Shown here piece after piece: positions 6,902-16,375 of a stretch of 64,000 nucleotides of DNA. Every line of letters starts with the position of its first letter. The stretch's first letter is position 1. Source of the DNA: Candidatus Poribacteria bacterium (lineage in GTDB: Bacteria; Poribacteria; WGA-4E; PCPOR2b); the NCBI GenBank assembly GCA_022822785.1, contig JAJEAL010000013.1:9118-73117 (forward strand), written 5' to 3'. The notes under the pieces are model-generated. The model saw only the letters and a program-made list of their open reading frames with translations, ran no database searches and was not told the origin of the DNA. Both the position numbers and the translations under genes were made by a program.

Positions 6902-7315
6902 TTACAGATTCTGCTCATATTTGATAAAAATTGCTCTAATCTGTCTTTCCGCTTCCGCACTTGTAACGGTGATAGCGGCTATGCGGCGTTTCTTTTCTTC
7001 GCGCTTTATTTCTTCGTTATATGTGGTTGTTTCTCCCGTTTGTATCCGATCGAATCCGTGAATAACGATTCCGTCAGCACCCGCCGCGCGTGCCTTTGCT
7101 TCTAGTTTCTTTTGCAAGTTTTCTGTGCTGATGCCTTCATGCGCTTGTGCAATAACATGGCCCATCACTTGATAATCTTCCCTGATATCCTGTTCTGAAA
7201 AGTAAAGATCCACATGCGTGGTAGGTGGGTAAGATTGCCCAATATAGTCAATTTTGGCGCAAGCAGCGCTGAACAGGACCAATAATGCTAGAAGTGACAC
7301 GGTGTATTTCAACAT
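6902..7315 (-). CDS. Small lipoprotein, YbjQ/heavy-metal-binding-like fold
   Basis: MLKYTVSLLALLVLFSAAC lipobox; L..KARAAGADGIVI motif; GGGGA RBS before ATG 7315. Confidence 0.65.
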   Translation of the reverse strand: MLKYTVSLLALLVLFSAACAKIDYIGQSYPPTTHVDLYFSEQDIREDYQVMGHVIAQAHEGISTENLQKKLEAKARAAGADGIVIHGFDRIQTGETTTYNEEIKREEKKRRIAAITVTSAEAERQIRAIFIKYEQNL

Positions 7316-7420
7316 GATAATCCCCCATGAAAGTGAATTCGGTGAGTTAATCGGTTCTACAAATACTTTTCCAAGCCAGATAAGATCTGATACTATGCTC
7401 TCTAGCTTTATCAACCATAG

Positions 7421-7667: not shown

Positions 7668-8162
7668 TTACGTGGAAATACCAGCGAGCAACACAGCCGT
7701 TGGCATTGACGTCTCTTGAGCTTTCTTGAATGCCTCGCTGATAAAGGGAATATCATCATCGGTCTCAATGATGTTATACGGAAATCCCCACGCCTTGAGC
7801 GTTGGCTCCAAAAATGTCGCGGCGGTGTCTACGCGCGGCGCATCAGGTCCCATTGTCTGATACCCCCGGTAGCCGATTAACGATACTAAGGGGACTTCCA
7901 TATTAAAAACTGTGCCTCGGATGGCGTCTCCAGACTCCAAAAACCCTGTGTTCTGGATGATGACTACTGGGTGTTTCCCACCAACGTATAACCCCGATGC
8001 GAGCGCGAATGCTTCACCTTCGCGAGTGACATTGATGACATCGATTTCGGGGGTTTCGTGGAGCCGTTTGAAAATTTGCGCTGTCCCGTTGTCGGGCAAG
8101 CCGATCGCATGGGTCACGTTCCATCTGTTTAACTCGTCTACAATCTTCTGTGCGGATACCAA
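7668..8162 (-). CDS. ThDP enzyme PYR-domain-only subunit (ComD/phosphonopyruvate decarboxylase alpha-like)
   Basis: VTREGEAFALASG, VIIQNTGFLESGDA, LIGYRG; 164 aa; GAGGAGG RBS before TTG. Confidence 0.8.
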   Translation of the reverse strand: MVSAQKIVDELNRWNVTHAIGLPDNGTAQIFKRLHETPEIDVINVTREGEAFALASGLYVGGKHPVVIIQNTGFLESGDAIRGTVFNMEVPLVSLIGYRGYQTMGPDAPRVDTAATFLEPTLKAWGFPYNIIETDDDIPFISEAFKKAQETSMPTAVLLAGIST

Positions 8163-8199: not shown

Positions 8200-10143
8200 C
8201 TACTGCCGCCCTTCGACGAGCGAATCGACAACTGCCGGTTCAGCGAGTGTTGACGTATCCCCAAGATCGTCAAGTTCTCCTTCAGCGATTTTCCGAAGGA
8301 TGCGGCGCATAATCTTGCCCGATCGGGTTTTGGGAAGCACCGGCGCAAACTGAATCTTGTCCGGGGTCGCGTGGGGACCGATATGCTGGCGAACGGCACT
8401 CCTGATACCGGTCTCAATTTCATCTGAAGGAGATAAACCACTCATCAATGTGACATAAGCGTAGATACCTTGTCCCTTAATCTCGTGCGGGTAACCGACG
8501 ACCGCGGCTTCAGCGACGGTTTCATGCTGTCCAATAGCCCCCTCAACTTCGGCAGTGCCTAAACGGTGTCCAGAGATATTCAGCACATCGTCAACGCGCC
8601 CGGTGATCCAGTAATAACCGTCTTCGTCGCGCAGAGCACCATCGCCGGTCATATAGTAGCCGGGGAATCGGTCAAAATAGGTTTCGCGGAAGCGCTCGTG
8701 GTTGCCGTAAACGGTTCGCATCACGCCGGGCCATGCGGTCTTGATACACAAGTATCCACGTGCCGGGTTGCCTTCCACCTCTTCACCTTCTTCGTCTAGA
8801 ATCACAGGTTCAATTCCGAAGAAGGGGAAGGTTGCGGAGCCGGGTTTAAGTGGTGTAGCCCCCGGTAACGGCGTCATCAAAATTCCGCCGGTTTCAGTTT
8901 GCCACCATGTATCAACAATTGGGCATTGCCCTCCTCCGACGATGTGGTAGTACCAGAGCCATTCAGGTTCCTTAATGGGCTCACCAACAGTACCTAACAG
9001 CCTCAGGGTAGATCGGCTATGTTTTGTGACCCAGTCATTTCCTTCCTTCATCAAGGCACGCAAGGCGGTTGGTGCGGTGTAGAAGAGATTAACTTGGTGC
9101 TTGTCGACCACCTGCCAGTAACGTCCGAAATCAGGATAGGTTGGGATACTTTCAAACATGAGGGTAATCGCACGGTTTGAAAGGGGACCGTACACAATAT
9201 AAGAGTGACCCGTAATCCAACCGATATCAGCGGCGCAGAAATAAACATCACCTTCGTGATAATCGAAAACCATCTCGTGGGTAAATGATGTATAGACGAG
9301 GTAGCCACCGGTTGTATGTAATACTCCTTTGGGTTGACCTGTTGAACCGGAAGTATAGAGGATAAACAGCGGATCTTCGGCATCCATCTCCTCAGGTGGG
9401 CATTCCTCATCAGCATCTGCCATTGCTTCGTGCCACCATACGTCACGTGATGGATCGAAATCAACGGGATCGCCGGTGCGGCGGACAACAATGACACCTT
9501 CAATCGACGGACAGTCCACCACAGCTGCATCGCCATTGGCTTTCATCGGGATACCACTACGGTCTCCACGAAACGCGGTATCCTGAGTAATTAGCAGTTT
9601 ACACTCCGAATCGTTAATGCGATCGCGTAGGGAATCAGCAGAAAACGCGCCGAACACAACGGAATGGACTGCGCCGATACGCGCACATGCTAGCATGGCA
9701 ATCGTCAGTTCCGGAACCATTTGCAGATAGATACAGACACGGTCGCCTTTACGGACACCTTGCGCCTTGAGAACGTTAGCAAAGCGTTTTACTTGTCCCA
9801 ACAACTCACTGTAAGTAAAGGTTTTATCCTCGTCGGGATTGTTACCCTCCCAAATAATTGCGGTTGCATCGCCATGTCCGGCTTCCACATGTCGGTCAAG
9901 ACAGTTGTAGCAAGCGTTCAACTTTCCGCCATCAAACCACTTAATGTTGGCGTTCACAAAGTCATACTCTCGGACGGTGTCCCACTGCTTATACCATGTA
10001 ATGCGTTCAGCGACATTCGCCCAGAAAGCCTCTGGATCAGCCACTGATTCATCGTACATCTTTTGATATTGCTCCATGTCGCTTATATGGGCGTTGGAGA
10101 TTGGATAATTTGTATTTTCTGGTGGAAATATCTTGGCTGCCAT
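8200..10143 (-). CDS. acs: Acetyl-CoA synthetase (AMP-forming)
   Basis: [44 protein letters not shown]. Confidence 0.96.
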
Positions 10144-10172
10144 AAAATTCTCCTTAGAAATTTGTTTCATGT

Positions 10173-10200
10173 ATTATAAACTAAAATGGGGTATTGTCAA
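10173..10200 (-). promoter_or_regulatory. Sigma70-type promoter for acs
   Basis: Minus strand TTGACA-16 bp-TATAAT, 30 nt upstream of the start codon. Confidence 0.7.
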
Positions 10201-10229
10201 TCAAAAACATAGGGGCATTTAGTTTTTCT

Positions 10230-10287
10230 GTAGGAGGGATTTCCCAATCCCGACCCTTCACTCTCGGAGCGACTTCCAGACGCCGAC
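10230..10287 (+). repeat. Two degenerate REP-like 24-nt units
   Basis: TAGGAGGGATTTCCCAATCCCGAC (10231-10254; stem GGGATT/AATCCC, preceded by G to give GTAG) and TCGGAGCGACTTCCAGACGCCGAC (10264-10287), about 17/24 identical. Confidence 0.4.
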
Positions 10288-10383
10288 TTTTCAAACAAAA
10301 TGGCTAAAAACCCTAAAACTGAACAGCCCTATCCATACCTAGTTCTAAAGGCTTATATTAGCCGTTGAAAGATTGAGAGTACC

Positions 10384-12942
10384 CTAATGTTCTCTCCCAC
10401 AAAATTCCTTGAGCGCCTCCTTCAACCGTGTTCCGCCCGGTACATACGCCAAAATCAACCCATCAATCACCTGACTCTGATCGGAGACAACCCCGGTCAA
10501 GCGCTCCCCCGTCACTCCCTTGGACAACAGTAGATAGAATGTGTCCTTCTTTAACCCCAACGTTGTAAAGAGATTTCCCTGCCCCTTTGAGATGACAAGG
10601 TCCGCATCAAGGAGGGCGTTTGCAAACTCCCCGGTTGCTTGATGGAGATTGGTGCCAACAGTGTTCGACCCCGATGAGATCAGATGCACATCACCAACGA
10701 CAGTCTGCTCCCGAAGTTTTTGGAATTGCGGATATGCAGTGAGTTCGCACAGATCATCTAGTGTCGCATCGTTAGCTGCGGGTGCTGCTTTGCCAGCGAT
10801 TGTAATCCGGTGCCCACGCTCGACGAGGGATTCCATAAGCCACAGATCAAAAACGGCTTCGCCATCGTTATCAATGAGCCAAACGATGCTTTTCGGTTCA
10901 CTTTCGATTACAGTTGACCGAAACCGGTCAAAACAATCAATCGATAAAGAAGCATGGCTAGCTTCCCGAAGAACGTGGTTGAAGTAATCGGGGGCTTCCC
11001 GGAGTTTCGCTACAACCCTTGTGCTGCTGTAATCGATAATATTGGCGGCTATGACGAGTTTCAGTCGTTCCAACCAATCACAGTCTGAAAATTGGCAAAG
11101 TAGATTAATCGCTGTTTGTCTAGCAGCAAGTTTATCTCGACGATATGGATCTGGGTTACCTGTGCAGAGCGAAACCATTTGAAAAATACTTCCCCAAAGT
11201 TCTTCAGGCGTCAAATCATCAATAATATGAGTACCGTTACCCTGACGCAATTCGAGTAGTTCAGTTACGGCATTTACTGCAGCCCGGCGCAATATCGGGT
11301 TGCGCGTCGCACGTCCGATTACCTCCCGCTCTGAATGCGATCTAACATGCCGGCGTAGATTTTCCCAATCCGGCAGTCCACGTTTTTCGCCAAAGGTAAA
11401 GACACCAGGGTTATAGTCAGGGAGGACTAGTTGATTTAGAAAGACCTGAGAAATCTGGCTTGAGATGGATTGTGTATTCCCTGACGCGTGATACCTGAAC
11501 CTAGCAGGAACGCCTAGCTGTTTATCTCTTATGGAACATTCTGGTGGAATCACTGTTGTCCGTGCTACGACGGATTTGAGGTGCGTTGGAGCCCCTACCT
11601 TCACACCGTCGAGCTGGCTGCTTTCGACGGAGGTGCCGACAGCCAATCCAGCAATCGGTGTAGCGATTTCGGTTGGCAGCAAGTTGGACTCAAAGACTGT
11701 ATTTGTTGCGGTCACATTTTCCAAGCCGACGAGATCGCCGACAGTCGTATTTCCCAAGAGCACAACATTTTCAAGACGACAGTAATTCCCAATCTCCACC
11801 TCACTGCCAAGATGAACACGTCCTAAAAGGTAGCAGCCGTGCCCAATTGTGATGTCATCATCCGCTAATGTGACCTGTGCCGCGGGATCGACCCGCACCC
11901 CTTTCTGGACAAGCTTTTGCTTAGTATCTGCAAACAGGTATTCTTCGCCGGTGAGAACGTTTGACCAACGATTGACGCCAGAGACAATTTCACCTTGATA
12001 GATATAGGCGTTGGTTTTTAAGCCATCCTCGTAGCAGTGGCGGATGAGATCGACATGATGGAGTTCCGACCTGTCACCATGGGGGCGTAGCCGATCGATT
12101 CGTTCCATCGCTGCATCGCGACGAATCAAGGTAATGCCGGTGTTGGTGTAGGCTTCTCCCCGCTTTAATCGACGCCACATCGACTGTTTTTCAGCGTCAG
12201 TCATATCGTACCACTCTTTTGTGCCGATAAACCTGCCCTCACTATCAAAGAATAGCCCCCCTTTGTCGACGACAGTATCTGGCACTTTACCACAGAGGGT
12301 AATATCCGCACCGACGGTAAAATGTGATAGGAGTATGCCCACAAAGATAGATTGATTCAGAAACGGCTCATCGCCAAATGCAACACCGATACACGCTGCG
12401 TCGGACTCGGCAACGAGGGGCAACGCGACCCGTAATGCAGCTCCTGTTCCGTAAGGCTGGTCAGGTTGGACACACAGGATAGCATTTGAACCAAACAGTC
12501 GATCGGTTTCGTCTCGATTAAGTGCTGTAGACGGGATAAGACCACTTGAAGGGATGTCTGTTTTCGCCACGCGCTCCGCCATCTGGGAGTTGACGACAAT
12601 GATATGCGCCCGGCTCCCCGGCAGGTAGCTTCGGGATAGTTGCAAAGTATTCTGTCCACCGAACCACAAATCCAAGTTTTTATTTAGGCGACTGGATGGA
12701 TCGATGCGGGTGCCCTTACCGGCTGCGAGGATAACCCATTGCGGATCAATTTGTCGAGACAGATGTTCAAAATCCGCTTGCCCAAGGTTTAGCTGACTAC
12801 CGATTCGGTCTGCGACAGCATGGAGGAATCGCAGCACCAATTTTTCAGATTCCACTTTATCTGAAATGCCGGTTAATTCAGAAAGATTGCAACGCAAAAC
12901 TGTTTCGACTGTTTGGCGAAGGCTATCAAGATGACTATTCAT
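10384..12942 (-). CDS. Fusion: GlmU-like nucleotidyltransferase + short left-handed beta-helix + DUF89/ARMT1-like phosphatase
   Basis: LAAGKGTR, Q..QPYGTG, GDEPFL, NTGI, GVN, hexapeptide-like repeats; then DPYRRDK, AANIIDY, DNDGEAVFD, NDAT, ADLVISKGQGN. Confidence 0.8.
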   Translation of the reverse strand: MNSHLDSLRQTVETVLRCNLSELTGISDKVESEKLVLRFLHAVADRIGSQLNLGQADFEHLSRQIDPQWVILAAGKGTRIDPSSRLNKNLDLWFGGQNTLQLSRSYLPGSRAHIIVVNSQMAERVAKTDIPSSGLIPSTALNRDETDRLFGSNAILCVQPDQPYGTGAALRVALPLVAESDAACIGVAFGDEPFLNQSIFVGILLSHFTVGADITLCGKVPDTVVDKGGLFFDSEGRFIGTKEWYDMTDAEKQSMWRRLKRGEAYTNTGITLIRRDAAMERIDRLRPHGDRSELHHVDLIRHCYEDGLKTNAYIYQGEIVSGVNRWSNVLTGEEYLFADTKQKLVQKGVRVDPAAQVTLADDDITIGHGCYLLGRVHLGSEVEIGNYCRLENVVLLGNTTVGDLVGLENVTATNTVFESNLLPTEIATPIAGLAVGTSVESSQLDGVKVGAPTHLKSVVARTTVIPPECSIRDKQLGVPARFRYHASGNTQSISSQISQVFLNQLVLPDYNPGVFTFGEKRGLPDWENLRRHVRSHSEREVIGRATRNPILRRAAVNAVTELLELRQGNGTHIIDDLTPEELWGSIFQMVSLCTGNPDPYRRDKLAARQTAINLLCQFSDCDWLERLKLVIAANIIDYSSTRVVAKLREAPDYFNHVLREASHASLSIDCFDRFRSTVIESEPKSIVWLIDNDGEAVFDLWLMESLVERGHRITIAGKAAPAANDATLDDLCELTAYPQFQKLREQTVVGDVHLISSGSNTVGTNLHQATGEFANALLDADLVISKGQGNLFTTLGLKKDTFYLLLSKGVTGERLTGVVSDQSQVIDGLILAYVPGGTRLKEALKEFCGREH

Positions 12943-13090
12943 CCGAGGAATTCTATCTGGCTTTTTGCAAAAGTACGAGGAAAATTGTGGGGATTGAACG
13001 GTGGTCTGGTACAGAAATCAGTGGTCGTTCATAGAATAAACATTGTGTAGGTACATTCTTTTGGGATGTTGATAGGAGATGCAGTGAGGA

Positions 13091-13158
13091 AACCGGATTC
13101 AAAAACCCGGTTGTTACAGATTACGGCGGGGTTGCCTTTCAGAAAACCCCGCCGTAAT
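13091..13158. repeat. Two adjacent inverted repeats downstream of ALDH (terminator or REP-like)
   Basis: AACCGG..CCGGTT (13091-13112) and a perfect 14-bp stem ATTACGGCGGGGTT/AACCCCGCCGTAAT (13120-13158). Confidence 0.6.
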
Positions 13159-13197
13159 GTACGAATACATCGGAGGGAGTACACCGTATTTTACACC

Positions 13198-14616
13198 TTA
13201 TTCACTCAGATGGAAAATCGCCATCTTCGTCTCGGTCATCTCCTCGACAGCGTACTTCGGACCTTCTTTACCCATGCCGCTCTCTTTCACGCCGCCATAG
13301 GGCATGAGGTCTGCTCGCCACTGCGTTCCCCAATTGACCATTAGGTTACCGGAGTCAACTTCACGCACAAACCGCATCGCCCAGTCAATGTTTTCGGTGA
13401 AGATTGCTGCACTCAATCCGTAGTTGGTATCATTGGCAAGAGCGATAGCATCGTCAATGTTTGAAACCTTTGTCACACCCACAACAGGTCCAAAGATTTC
13501 ATCGCATGAAATCTTCATCTCCGGCGCGACGTTGGCGACGAGTGTCGGAGCATAGATCTGACCATTTCTTTCGCCACCGGTGAGGAGCTCTGCACCACTA
13601 CTGACGGCCTCATCGACCCACTCACCAACACGGACAGCGTCATCTTCACGAATCATCGGCCCCATTTTGGTCGGTTCATCAAGGGGATTCCCTGTGGAGA
13701 TATCTTCAACAGTTGATTTGAAAGCATCAAGAAAATCGCCGTAGATATCCTGATGGGCAATGACCCGTTGTGTTGAGATACAAACCTGACCCGCATTAGA
13801 ATAACCGGATAATGCTGCAGCTGCGGCAACCTTCTCGGGATCGGCGTCCGGCATAACAATTAACGGAGAGTTAGATCCCAGTTCCATCGTTACACGTTTG
13901 AGTCCGGCGACCTTGCAGATATGCTCTCCGACATCACGGCTACCGGTGAACGTAATCTTTCGGACCCGCTTATCCTCACAGAGCCCATCACCAATCACAC
14001 TGCCTGATCCGGTCAGACATTGAATAGCCTCCGGCGGTGTGCCCGCTTCAAGGAAGAGCTCAACTAGTTTCAATGCCGATAGCGGTGTGTCTGTAGCAGG
14101 TTTAACAATAATTGCGTTTCCTGCCGCGAGTGCGGGCCCCACTTTGTGACAAACCAAGTGGAGCGGGAAGTTAAACGGACTAATTCCAACAACAATGCCA
14201 CAAGGCACTCGAACGGTAAAACCTAGTTTCCCCTTAACACCGGGGCCGCCTTCAAGCGGGATTACTTCACCGTAGAGCCGCTTAGCTTCTTCCGCAGAGA
14301 GCGCGATAATCTCAGCTGCGCGTCCAGCTTCCATTGTTGCCTCTGCGAGAATTTTTCCTTCCTCCAACGTAATGATTCGAGCGAGTTCATCAGTACGCTC
14401 TGCCATCATTTCGGAGACCTTGTGAATAATTTCATAGCGTTCGTAACCGGTCATTTTCGCCATGATTTTTGCGCCGCGTTCGGCGGTCTTGAGCGCGGTT
14501 TCGACATCATCGTGATCACCTCTGGGAATGGTGTCAACAACAGAACCGTCAAAAGGATTCAGAACTTCAATTTTCTGCGGCTTGTCAACCCATTCTCCGC
14601 CGATATGCATTCTCAT
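13198..14616 (-). CDS. NAD(P)-dependent aldehyde dehydrogenase
   Basis: ISPFNFP, VKPA, FTGS, MELG, GQVCIS catalytic Cys, EIFGP, PYGGVKESG. Confidence 0.95.
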   Translation of the reverse strand: MRMHIGGEWVDKPQKIEVLNPFDGSVVDTIPRGDHDDVETALKTAERGAKIMAKMTGYERYEIIHKVSEMMAERTDELARIITLEEGKILAEATMEAGRAAEIIALSAEEAKRLYGEVIPLEGGPGVKGKLGFTVRVPCGIVVGISPFNFPLHLVCHKVGPALAAGNAIIVKPATDTPLSALKLVELFLEAGTPPEAIQCLTGSGSVIGDGLCEDKRVRKITFTGSRDVGEHICKVAGLKRVTMELGSNSPLIVMPDADPEKVAAAAALSGYSNAGQVCISTQRVIAHQDIYGDFLDAFKSTVEDISTGNPLDEPTKMGPMIREDDAVRVGEWVDEAVSSGAELLTGGERNGQIYAPTLVANVAPEMKISCDEIFGPVVGVTKVSNIDDAIALANDTNYGLSAAIFTENIDWAMRFVREVDSGNLMVNWGTQWRADLMPYGGVKESGMGKEGPKYAVEEMTETKMAIFHLSE

Positions 14617-14822: not shown

Positions 14823-15638
14823 ATGAAATCTCTGGGCTGCAGCACAATTTTATACGGAGGATTCAATTTAGAACAGACGCTCAACAGCATTGCGAAAGCT
14901 GGGTATAAGGCGATTGAGCTCTGCGCACGTCCCGGGATGGCGCCCCATCTGGAAATTGGCAGACCGGCTTCATACTACAGGGAGATCAGCACGAGAGTCG
15001 CTTCGTACGGTTTGGCAATTGAATCCATCGCAGGAACTGGTGGAATTGGGCTGGATAACCCTGAATTTGACACGGTAATCGAAGCAGCACAACAGGTTGG
15101 CGCATCGGTAATCGCCGAAGGAACAGGCGGGAAGTCCGATGATGAGGAGAGTTTCAAACAGGTAGTGGAGTTGATTAAGGCGACCAGCACCCGGACCTCA
15201 CAAGCTGGCATTAAGCTGAGTCTGAAACCGCATGTCAATAATGCAGTGTATTCAACGGAAACGGCGTTACGCTTTATGCGGGAGGTCGACCGTCAGTGGG
15301 TAGGGCTGAATTTTGATGCAAGCCACATTTGGCGGACAGCTGCTGCTGAGGATCCGGTGGAATCGCTCCAGCAGCTGAAAGATTACATTGCTACGCTGCG
15401 TATCCGTGACAATCGCGAGAGCCGTGAGACTCCGATAGGTCCTGTTGAGACACAGATTCCCGGCAAAGGGGGTATGGATCTTCCTGCACTCGCCGCTGTT
15501 ATGAATACAATGGACCATGTACCTTATGTAACACTGGAGATTGTTGGCACACATGGGGGGACGGATACACCACTTGCTGAAGTCCAACGGGTTGTAGAGG
15601 AATCAATAAAGTATTTGAGACCATTTTTCGTTGCGTAG
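14823..15638 (+). CDS. Sugar phosphate isomerase/epimerase (AP-endonuclease-2 TIM barrel)
   Basis: GYKAIEL, GLNFDASH, IRD, PGKGGMD, VTLEI. Confidence 0.8.
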   Translation: MKSLGCSTILYGGFNLEQTLNSIAKAGYKAIELCARPGMAPHLEIGRPASYYREISTRVASYGLAIESIAGTGGIGLDNPEFDTVIEAAQQVGASVIAEGTGGKSDDEESFKQVVELIKATSTRTSQAGIKLSLKPHVNNAVYSTETALRFMREVDRQWVGLNFDASHIWRTAAAEDPVESLQQLKDYIATLRIRDNRESRETPIGPVETQIPGKGGMDLPALAAVMNTMDHVPYVTLEIVGTHGGTDTPLAEVQRVVEESIKYLRPFFVA

Positions 15639-15669
15639 GAGTTTGCCCAGCAGCCTCGGAGGGAGTCAA

Positions 15670-15999
15670 ATGGCTGAAGTCGAAACAAACGTAACCTTAC
15701 AACGCATTAAGGAAATTGCCGATCAGATTGTGGAACGCTCCCATCCACAGAAGATAATTCTGTTTGGTTCTTACGCTTACGGCACAGCAACGGTGGACAG
15801 TGATGTGGATCTGCTGGTAATGATGGATACAGAAGAAAAACCACTCCATGTCGCAGCGGAAATTGCTGCAGCTATTGACCATCCCTTTCCGCTGGACATT
15901 GTCGTACGCACGCCCACCGACTGGAATGCTTCTCTGAAACGCAAAGGAATCTTTGCCACAGAGGTTATGGCGAAAGGGATTGTCTTGTATGAAGCCTGA
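15670..15999 (+). CDS. Minimal nucleotidyltransferase (MNT) antitoxin
   Basis: ILFGSYAYG...DSDVDLLV motif; 109 aa; overlaps the HEPN gene. Confidence 0.9.
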   Translation: MAEVETNVTLQRIKEIADQIVERSHPQKIILFGSYAYGTATVDSDVDLLVMMDTEEKPLHVAAEIAAAIDHPFPLDIVVRTPTDWNASLKRKGIFATEVMAKGIVLYEA

Positions 16000-16375
16000 G
16001 ACGCAGGAGGGGATTGAGAAAGCCGAAGGCGACAGGAAGGTTGCGCGACGGGAGATTCAAACCGTCCATCCTGTCTGGAATGTTGTGTGCTTTCTTGCAC
16101 AACAGTGTGCAGAAAAATACCTGAAAGGATTCTTGGAAGAACATAGCATTGCCTTTCAGAAGACTCATGATCTTCTGGTTCTGCTCAATTTAAGTGGAGG
16201 ACCGATTTCAGAACTGGACTCATTGAGACTGCAATTGGCACATCTCAGTACTTTCGGCATTGCAACCCGCTATCCGGGAACACAGGCGGATAAGCAAGCA
16301 GCAGAAAATGCTATCCAAACAACAGAGACAGTACGCACGGTGGTCAGAACAAAGTTAGGACTTTCAGACGGCTAA
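15989..16375 (+). CDS. HEPN domain protein (MNT-HEPN TA pair)
   Basis: CFLAQQCAEKYLKG, KTHDL, RYP motifs. Confidence 0.9.
   Translation: MKPETQEGIEKAEGDRKVARREIQTVHPVWNVVCFLAQQCAEKYLKGFLEEHSIAFQKTHDLLVLLNLSGGPISELDSLRLQLAHLSTFGIATRYPGTQADKQAAENAIQTTETVRTVVRTKLGLSDG

Follow-up and report, generated by a model that had tools for sequence, protein, structure and literature searches.

A conserved GlmU-like nucleotidyltransferase–DUF89 fusion in Candidatus Poribacteria and its proposed role in UDP-N-acetylglucosamine synthesis

The fusion gene and its two halves

The stretch of DNA analysed here, which we call the window, comprises 64,000 nucleotides from a Candidatus Poribacteria bacterium (GenBank assembly GCA_022822785.1, contig JAJEAL010000013.1, positions 9,118 to 73,117). 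On its reverse strand a single open reading frame (ORF), 10384..12942 (-), encodes 852 amino acids and a stop codon, has no internal stop and joins a GlmU-type nucleotidyltransferase to a DUF89 domain. The protein begins with a helical extension (residues 1–65; 12748..12942 (-)), which is followed by a GlmU-type sugar-1-phosphate uridylyltransferase domain (residues 66–345; 11908..12747 (-)) assigned from the NCBIfam glmU model, alignment to GlmU chains and Foldseek. A connecting helix and a short left-handed beta-helix (LbH; residues 346–480; 11503..11907 (-)), the latter equivalent to the proximal LbH coils of GlmU, lead into a variable linker (481 to about 505) and a family-specific conserved segment (510–533), for which the interval is 11374..11502 (-). 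The chain ends in a DUF89/ARMT1-like metal-dependent phosphohydrolase domain of subfamily-I-like type (residues 524–852; 10387..11373 (-)), identified by PF01937, by matches to PH1575 and AF1104 and by its catalytic residues. The N-terminal extension is variable and partly missing in other families of Poribacteria; its mean column conservation is 0.56, with 23% gaps, in an alignment of 67 sequences, and matches from family f3 begin at about residue 45–65. Helices are predicted in it at residues 2–16, 29–47 and 55–65 of the structure model described below.

The initial annotation had described this frame as a GlmU-like nucleotidyltransferase with a short beta-helix, no acetyltransferase tail and a complete DUF89 domain, and the ORF, Pfam, NCBIfam and the predicted fold all agree with that description. 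Each of the motifs that it listed was located exactly once in the protein: LAAGKGTR (72–79), RLNKNL (85–90), QPYGTG (162–167), GDEPF (190–194), NTG (267–269), GVN (322–324), AANIIDY (632–638), DNDGE (691–695), NDAT (724–727) and SKGQGN (785–790).

The fusion is a real gene and not an assembly artefact, since about 68 independent assemblies contain full-length copies, one DNA contig (run X1) covers 10302–13400 with 0 differences and metatranscriptome contigs from a sponge (run X4) map to parts of both domains without indels or joints. It is also expressed, since these RNA contigs cover both halves. An assembly chimera or a missed stop between the domains, which the initial annotation had named as the possible undoing of its claim, is ruled out by the number of assemblies, by the presence of the fusion in 57 of 61 sampled Poribacteria genomes and by the spanning DNA contig. 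In one relative the gene is indeed in two pieces (residues 1–721 and 710–849): the complete Poribacteria chromosome OY762266.1 (L010; G015:C1:161784-164329) carries the fusion as two overlapping frames, the result of a frameshift or of a long-read assembly error. Set against this are the intact full-length frames, some of them in complete chromosomes, and the invariance of the catalytic residues in both halves, so that there is almost no probability of a chimera, a missed stop or a decaying pseudogene.

The NCBIfam glmU model TIGR01173 aligns over positions 4–316 of 452 with residues 70–411 (E = 1.4e-20) and scores 73.6 bits against a cut-off of 366.85, below the threshold for a GlmU equivalog. 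The glmU models are the sole NCBIfam nucleotidyltransferase models to match the N-terminal domain at E < 1e-9; Pfam gives a weak match to NTP_transf_3 (MobA-like nucleotidyltransferase) at residues 70–201, and many GlmU chains are among the matches of a sequence search of the PDB. An AlphaFold model was obtained from 67 diverse sequences with a predicted local distance difference test (pLDDT) score of 83.3, an earlier model from 29 close homologs (pLDDT 57) having been discarded. The pLDDT is about 90 in the nucleotidyltransferase and DUF89 domains, 50–60 in the LbH and below 50 in the linker at residues 482–495. When this model was compared with the PDB using Foldseek, the top 16 matches were bacterial GlmU structures (E values of 1e-19 to 1e-17), placed above enzymes of the RmlA, ST0452 and ADP-glucose pyrophosphorylase types.

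Residues R79, K88, Q159, D191, E243, N267, E293, D298 and N324 are identical in all 67 sequences, and in HMMER alignments to GlmU chains they land on the LAAGKGTR...K, Q-x5-GTG, GD-x-P, VE-x-KDA, NTG, GEY and GVN motifs, with K88 aligned to K25 of GlmU. The active-site set of the GlmU uridylyltransferase, namely the G-x-G-T-R loop with Lys, Gln, Asp, Asn, Glu and Asn, is present by alignment as R79, K88, Q159, D191, E243, N267 and N324. The motifs that hold Q159, D191, E243, N267, E293 and N324 are those that we take to provide the contacts to uracil, to metal and phosphate and to the N-acetylglucosamine (GlcNAc) ring in GlmU structures. The asparagine equivalent to GlmU N169 forms a hydrogen bond to the 3-OH group of GlcNAc, and S. 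aureus GlmU is badly impaired without it (bioRxiv 10.64898/2026.06.23.733835). The initial annotation had seen in RLNKNL, where the usual PK after the glycine-rich loop is replaced, a hint of a different substrate. The change from PK to NK is genuine, but it tells little about the substrate because the lysine, K88, is retained, and the residues aligned with the uracil, metal and GlcNAc contacts do not vary among the 67 sequences.

The beta-helix that follows gives a Pfam Hexapep match at residues 364–392, and the connecting helix and LbH together measure 135 residues in 58 of 67 sequences. The GlmU models align only as far as model position 316–344 or so of 452, short of the acetyltransferase site, and the LbH holds no invariant polar residue: H377 is present in 64 of 67 sequences (valine in deep-branching lineages) and position 454 is histidine in only 8 of 67. 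The distal LbH coils, catalytic histidine and acetyl-CoA arm that make up the C-terminal acetyltransferase site of GlmU were not found in the fusion. By these alignments the acetyltransferase function is not conserved, since the GlmU models end before the site and no polar residue is invariant. The retention of a beta-helix of fixed length suggests that a GlmU-like trimer has been kept, and the beta-helix probably serves as a trimerization stalk. The linker after the LbH ranges from 35 to 76 residues in relatives and contains indels; it gives way to the conserved segment 510–533, YxPGVFTFGEKxxLPDWENLRxHV, which leads into the DUF89 domain and in which P512, G513, W526 and H532 are invariant.

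Pfam ARMT1-like (PF01937) matches residues 583–791 with 116.3 bits against a gathering threshold of 25 (E = 2e-33), and the sequence search of the PDB returns PH1575 (2g8l) over residues 541–806 (E = 9e-15) as well as AF1104. With Foldseek the template-modelling (TM) score to PH1575 is 0.84 (target-normalized; root-mean-square deviation 3.1 over 320 columns) and that to AF1104 about 0.8; the predicted structure of the domain has the DUF89 fold. The catalytic set N634, D637, D691-N692, D725 and K786 (of KGQGN) is invariant in all 67 sequences and is kept in P0143, a distant relative. The equivalent residues of S. pombe Duf8901 (Asn192, Asp195, Asp248, Asn249, Asp286 and Lys401) are essential there, and their roles as Asp nucleophile, metal ligands and phosphate-binding Lys were assigned by mutagenesis and from BeF3 and AlF4 structures (PMC9062747). 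A score of 86 bits against 440 for the damage-control phosphatase equivalog NF040824 of NCBIfam marks the DUF89 half as a divergent superfamily member outside that named equivalog. Subfamily III proteins (yeast YMR027W/human ARMT1) comprise 380–480 residues and carry an RTxK motif 40–50 residues from the C-terminus (PMC9062747); RTxK is absent from the C-terminal region here, which reads LLLSKGVTGERLTGVV, and the best solved relatives, both by sequence search of the PDB and by Foldseek, are subfamily I proteins. Since the active-site and catalytic residues are invariant in each half, both look competent, the first as a uridylyltransferase and the second as a catalytically intact phosphohydrolase.

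Distribution, gene order and the UDP-GlcNAc pathway

A homology search recovered more than 120 clusters of full-length homologs with lengths of 840–880 residues and 62–82% identity. In a scan of one genome per species, about 68 loci carry the full fusion, at identities down to 41%; nearly all are labelled Candidatus Poribacteria and many are in single-chromosome assemblies. The same scan matched only stand-alone DUF89 proteins outside Poribacteria (L074-L079), and no amino-sugar genes lie near the stand-alone DUF89 genes of six other phyla. Within Poribacteria the fusion is single-copy in 57 of the 61 sampled genomes, or 56 of 58 of high quality; the four without it are a fragmented genome and three that belong to a different class. 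Among 1.84 billion representatives at 50% identity, the whole architecture occurs in only about six clusters and in the distant P0143, a protein of 991 residues with 28% identity and large inserts in its nucleotidyltransferase domain (L082 2273-5248, JGI metagenome 3300045146). The neighbourhood of P0143, between fliF and an SRP54/FlhF-type gene on a metagenome contig, was considered as a clue to function and found uninformative. The fusion is a lineage-restricted protein assembled from known parts, and it provides a clean phylum marker for Poribacteria. The initial annotation knew of no GlmU-type fusion of this kind, and this stands: literature searches on DUF89 with nucleotidyltransferases, and on Poribacteria with UDP-GlcNAc or GlmU, gave nothing relevant and no description of a GlmU-type fusion to DUF89. 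The architecture is common only within Poribacteria and is uncharacterized, contrary to the possibility, also raised there, that it might be common and characterized already.

The strongest evidence on function is the gene order in the deep-branching lineages, by which we mean those whose fusion has 41–43% identity to that of the window. There the fusion occupies the place expected of glmU. In L070, glgC, a glmM of the Arch_glmM type (463 bits vs 439), yvcK (308 vs 196), the fusion and nagB (246 vs 236.9) follow one another on one strand, with a gap of 46 bp between glmM and yvcK, an overlap of 4 bp between yvcK and the fusion and a gap of 19 bp between the fusion and nagB. In L063 and L071 yvcK, the fusion and nagB form a discrete unit with opposite-strand genes on its flanks. 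NagB interconverts glucosamine 6-phosphate and fructose 6-phosphate. In the window's genome yvcK adjoins glmM and glmS, and in the deep lineages it adjoins the fusion.

GlmU, a target for antibiotics, is regarded as essential and as the universal way in which bacteria make UDP-GlcNAc; recent work has brought exceptions to light. The initial annotation had asked whether a canonical glmU exists elsewhere in the genome, and none does above the curated cut-off in any of the 61 Poribacteria genomes, in a search that was positive for 9 of 14 control genomes; the best GlmU-like match in nearly every Poribacteria genome is the 800–890-residue frame of the fusion itself. The window's genome, which is 96% complete, needs UDP-GlcNAc because it encodes MurA (553 bits vs 393) and LpxA (312 vs 226), with KdsB also present. 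GlmS (803 bits), an archaeal-type GlmM (TIGR03990; 514 bits vs 439) and YvcK/GlmR are encoded in one cluster on contig C33. This housekeeping cluster (C33:100000-105800; L080 5625-11774) comprises a gene for a tetratricopeptide repeat (TPR) protein, a 264-residue ORF that overlaps the start of glmM and has no Pfam or NCBIfam match, the archaeal-type glmM, yvcK/glmR and glmS. YvcK/GlmR binds UDP-GlcNAc, activates GlmS and is an accessory uridyltransferase in Listeria (PMC6171935, PMC7525490, PMC10128056). No uridyltransferase of the UAP/NagU type was found with PF01704, a search made without a positive control, or by an independent six-frame motif scan.

The remaining nucleotidyltransferases of the genome look committed to other roles. 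That on C17, which resembles rmlA_long and Arch_glmU, was considered as the true GlmU and judged unlikely, since its gene neighbours, in a cluster apart, encode a GHMP sugar kinase, a GalE-like epimerase, an alcohol dehydrogenase and a GNAT protein. C57 encodes KdsB, and by reading of the sequences the enzyme of C20 is IspD-like and that of C24 MobA-like. At C67:36467-38413 (-) lies a 640-residue protein in which a GHMP sugar kinase, resembling galactokinase or mevalonate kinase, is fused to a GalU-type UTP-sugar-1-phosphate uridylyltransferase; the whole looks like a sugar salvage and activation module in one protein. The only LbH acetyltransferase resembling the C-terminal part of GlmU, on C36, was rejected as a split-off acetyltransferase because it is found in just 11 of 61 genomes. 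It is conceivable, by analogy with the eukaryotic route, that N-acetylation takes place at the 6-phosphate level by a GNAT enzyme.

The three genomes of another class of the phylum (G002, G004 and G006) have no GlmU, fusion or YvcK, their apparent GlmU-like match being GalU. They must have yet another route to UDP-GlcNAc if lipid A is made. L083, a locus of this class, also carries a 448-residue ORF that reads by eye like an LpxC–FabZ fusion.

Around the fusion in the window's genus lie genes for an aldehyde dehydrogenase (13198-14616), related to phosphonoacetaldehyde and sulfoacetaldehyde dehydrogenases, the acetyl-CoA synthetase acs (8200-10170) and a protein like thiamine-diphosphate (ThDP)-dependent decarboxylases (7668-8162); in family f3 the neighbours are a CapK-like ligase and a sulfatase. 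Both neighbourhoods are lineage-specific and uninformative. We rejected a functional link to the window neighbours, given that the arrangement is kept only in the window's own genus (about ten loci), that 213–255 bp separate the genes and that acs has its own promoter, and a phosphonate or sulfonate cluster with a cytidylyltransferase-like activator was dropped on the same evidence. The promoter is a perfect sigma-70 sequence, TTGACA-16-TATAAT (12/12), at 10173-10200 (-), immediately upstream of acs, which speaks for separate transcription of acs and the fusion.

Other features of the surroundings may be recorded here. At about 10216-10256 lies a short intergenic element at which contigs from several runs, of metagenomes and metatranscriptomes alike, are interrupted and the summed depth jumps to 263 compared with about 9 (run X1); it is probably a multi-copy short repeat of the community or the genome. 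The ThDP gene (7668-8162 (-)) encodes a 164-residue N-terminal domain with a sub-threshold likeness (75.8 bits) to a sulfopyruvate or phosphonopyruvate decarboxylase alpha subunit, and a 170-residue ORF without a family match (6902-7414 (-)), separated from it by 254 bp, could be a divergent beta subunit. Two small overlapping ORFs at 15631-16375 (+), of 122 and 140 residues and present in some genomes of the genus only, resemble by eye a minimal nucleotidyltransferase/HEPN toxin–antitoxin pair.

Proposed function and the alternatives

We consider it probable that the N-terminal domain is the GlcNAc-1-phosphate uridylyltransferase of Poribacteria and the DUF89 half an active phosphohydrolase of the same pathway. 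The gene looks like a Poribacteria-specific descendant of bacterial GlmU with a housekeeping role, because it is single-copy and near-universal in a phylum without canonical GlmU and stands in a glmM–yvcK/nagB context in the deep lineages. On these grounds a new nucleotide-sugar pathway, as the initial annotation had proposed, appears less likely than the replacement of GlmU.

The N-terminal domain would most likely convert GlcNAc-1-phosphate and UTP to UDP-GlcNAc and pyrophosphate (PPi), and the product would feed MurA for peptidoglycan and LpxA for lipid A. With the proximal beta-helix kept, probably as the stalk of a trimer, and the acetyltransferase active site gone, the DUF89 domain would replace the acetyltransferase half, and three DUF89 domains would stand at the former three acetyltransferase sites. 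In the hydrolysis D691 would form an aspartyl-phosphate intermediate, and D691, N692 and D725 would bind the metal; the reaction may be coupled to uridylyl transfer, and N-acetylation would fall to a separate enzyme. The architecture, its conservation and distribution, the operon context and the expression are shown here, and the substrates of both domains, the trimer and the coupling between the domains are what we infer. Our preference, a tentative one, is that the DUF89 half hydrolyses the by-product PPi on the spot, which would turn a reversible transfer into an irreversible one. Almost equally likely, and likewise only a possibility, is that it clears competing or non-acetylated hexose 1-phosphates such as glucosamine 1-phosphate (GlcN-1-P) and glucose 1-phosphate. 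Nucleotides are a third option, less obviously coupled to the transfer. With Co or Ni as the metal, PPi is hydrolysed by the DUF89 enzymes of fission yeast and humans, and phosphomonoesters are also substrates of the family (PMC9062747).

Several observations weigh against this proposal. The likeness to GlmU is remote (73.6 vs 366.85 bits; 21–23% identity), the neighbours in the window's genus (aldehyde dehydrogenase and acs) are unrelated to amino sugars and the domain orientation is not reliably modelled, the predicted TM score being 0.60 and the LbH pLDDT 50–60. The window's genome has other nucleotidyltransferases (C17, C67 and C129), no acetyltransferase was found for the pathway, which stays incomplete, and the three genomes of the other class that lack GlmU, the fusion and YvcK imply another route to UDP-GlcNAc that could also operate here. 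As to PPi in particular, the absence of a canonical pyrophosphatase would have supported such a role and was rejected as an argument, since a family-I pyrophosphatase is present on C41 of the window's genome. Subfamily I DUF89 enzymes reportedly prefer nucleotides (Huang et al. 2016). The pyrophosphatase activity of DUF89 enzymes is slow, at approximately 0.5–32 per min (PMC9062747), and uridyl transfer for comparison proceeds at 6–10 per s (bioRxiv 10.64898/2026.06.23.733835). Uridyltransferase activity has also been reported for YvcK, in the form of Listeria GlmR (PMC10128056).

The presence of the family-I pyrophosphatase speaks for proofreading or damage control, close to the self-proofreading enzyme that the initial annotation had inferred. 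This version would leave the uridylyltransferase as we propose it and have the DUF89 domain destroy GlcN-1-P, glucose 1-phosphate or other reactive phosphoesters, so that only GlcNAc-1-phosphate is activated or inhibitory sugar phosphates are kept from building up. DUF89 enzymes have been characterized as phosphatases of sugar phosphates and reactive phosphoesters (PMC9062747), and glucose 1-phosphate inhibits GlmU chemistry (PMC12345230). The DUF89 domain sits exactly in place of the GlcN-1-P-binding module of GlmU, and if acetylation occurred at the 6-phosphate level GlmM would yield GlcN-1-P as a dead end. Hydrolysis of GlcN-1-P would, however, create a futile cycle beside GlmS and GlmM; the closest solved relatives belong to subfamily I, reportedly with a preference for nucleotides over sugar phosphates, and the stand-alone DUF89 genes of six other phyla have no amino-sugar neighbours. 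We regard this version as possible and rather unlikely.

A more distant alternative, which we consider improbable, is that the fusion activates another sugar 1-phosphate for a glycan or metabolite specific to Poribacteria, with UDP-GlcNAc supplied by YvcK as a uridyltransferase, by the rmlA_long-like enzyme of C17 or by another enzyme. The score far under the GlmU cut-off, the other nucleotidyltransferases of the genome, the three genomes of the other class that live without GlmU or the fusion, the uridyltransferase activity of Listeria GlmR (PMC10128056) and the lack of amino-sugar neighbours in the window's genus and in family f3 would all be in keeping with this. Against it stand the conservation of the GlcNAc-contacting residues, the status of the fusion as a single-copy core gene and its location at the glmU position between glmM–yvcK and nagB in the deep lineages. 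Moreover, the C17 enzyme belongs to its own sugar kinase/epimerase/GNAT cluster and the C67 protein is a GHMP-kinase–GalU salvage fusion.

The fusion may represent a further layout of bacterial UDP-GlcNAc synthesis, in which the sole GlmU-type enzyme has had its acetyltransferase half swapped for a coupled DUF89 domain on a trimeric stalk and acetylation has moved elsewhere; we put this forward tentatively.

Comparison with known systems

A whole phylum of abundant sponge symbionts departs from the canonical GlmU pathway, with a conserved fusion at the glmU position of an amino-sugar operon. Two questions follow. Firstly, at which step and site is glucosamine acetylated? Secondly, what is the role of a DUF89 domain that is hard-wired to a nucleotidyltransferase? 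We know of no physiological substrate for any prokaryotic DUF89 protein, and fusion to a partner whose reaction is defined leaves only a few candidates, namely PPi, hexose 1-phosphates and uridine nucleotides. Should the layout with a coupled DUF89 domain be true, a prokaryotic DUF89 protein would for the first time have been given a physiological role.

Some bacteria are known to have a uridyltransferase of the NagU/UAP1 type or only a truncated GlmU N-terminal domain (Polystyrenella longa), with the acetyltransferase unidentified (bioRxiv 10.64898/2026.06.23.733835). Poribacteria resemble them in having no full-length GlmU and yet needing UDP-GlcNAc. They differ in that no gene of the NagU/UAP type was found and in that the truncated GlmU carries a DUF89 domain, a fusion absent from that preprint.

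With bacterial GlmU itself (E. coli, 1HV9/2OI6; M. tuberculosis, 2QKX/3SPT) the fusion shares the Rossmann-like uridylyltransferase fold, the long connecting helix and the start of the LbH, together with the G-x-G-T-R...K loop and the Q-x5-GTG, G-D-x-P, E, N-T-G, E and G-V-N motifs. It departs from GlmU in its identity of 21–23% and a score of one fifth of the cut-off, in having no distal LbH coils or C-terminal arm, which form the acetyl-CoA/GlcN-1-P site, and in possessing a 65-residue N-terminal extension, an insert of about 20 residues in the nucleotidyltransferase domain and the extra DUF89 domain of 330 residues.

The DUF89 half is like the subfamily I proteins P. horikoshii PH1575 (2G8L) and A. 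fulgidus AF1104 (2FFJ) in fold (TM 0.79–0.84) and in its full set of N...D, D-N, D and K-G-x-G-N residues. Those proteins are stand-alone and of about 285 residues, whereas here the domain is the C-terminal part of a biosynthetic enzyme behind the conserved segment 510–533. In this respect the fusion recalls the pantothenate kinase–DUF89 fusions of PANK4 (subfamily II), where DUF89 is likewise C-terminal to an enzyme of a cofactor or precursor pathway (PMC4921024, PMC9062747). The partner enzyme, the pathway and the DUF89 subfamily all differ, and PANK4 is eukaryotic whereas the fusion described here is bacterial.

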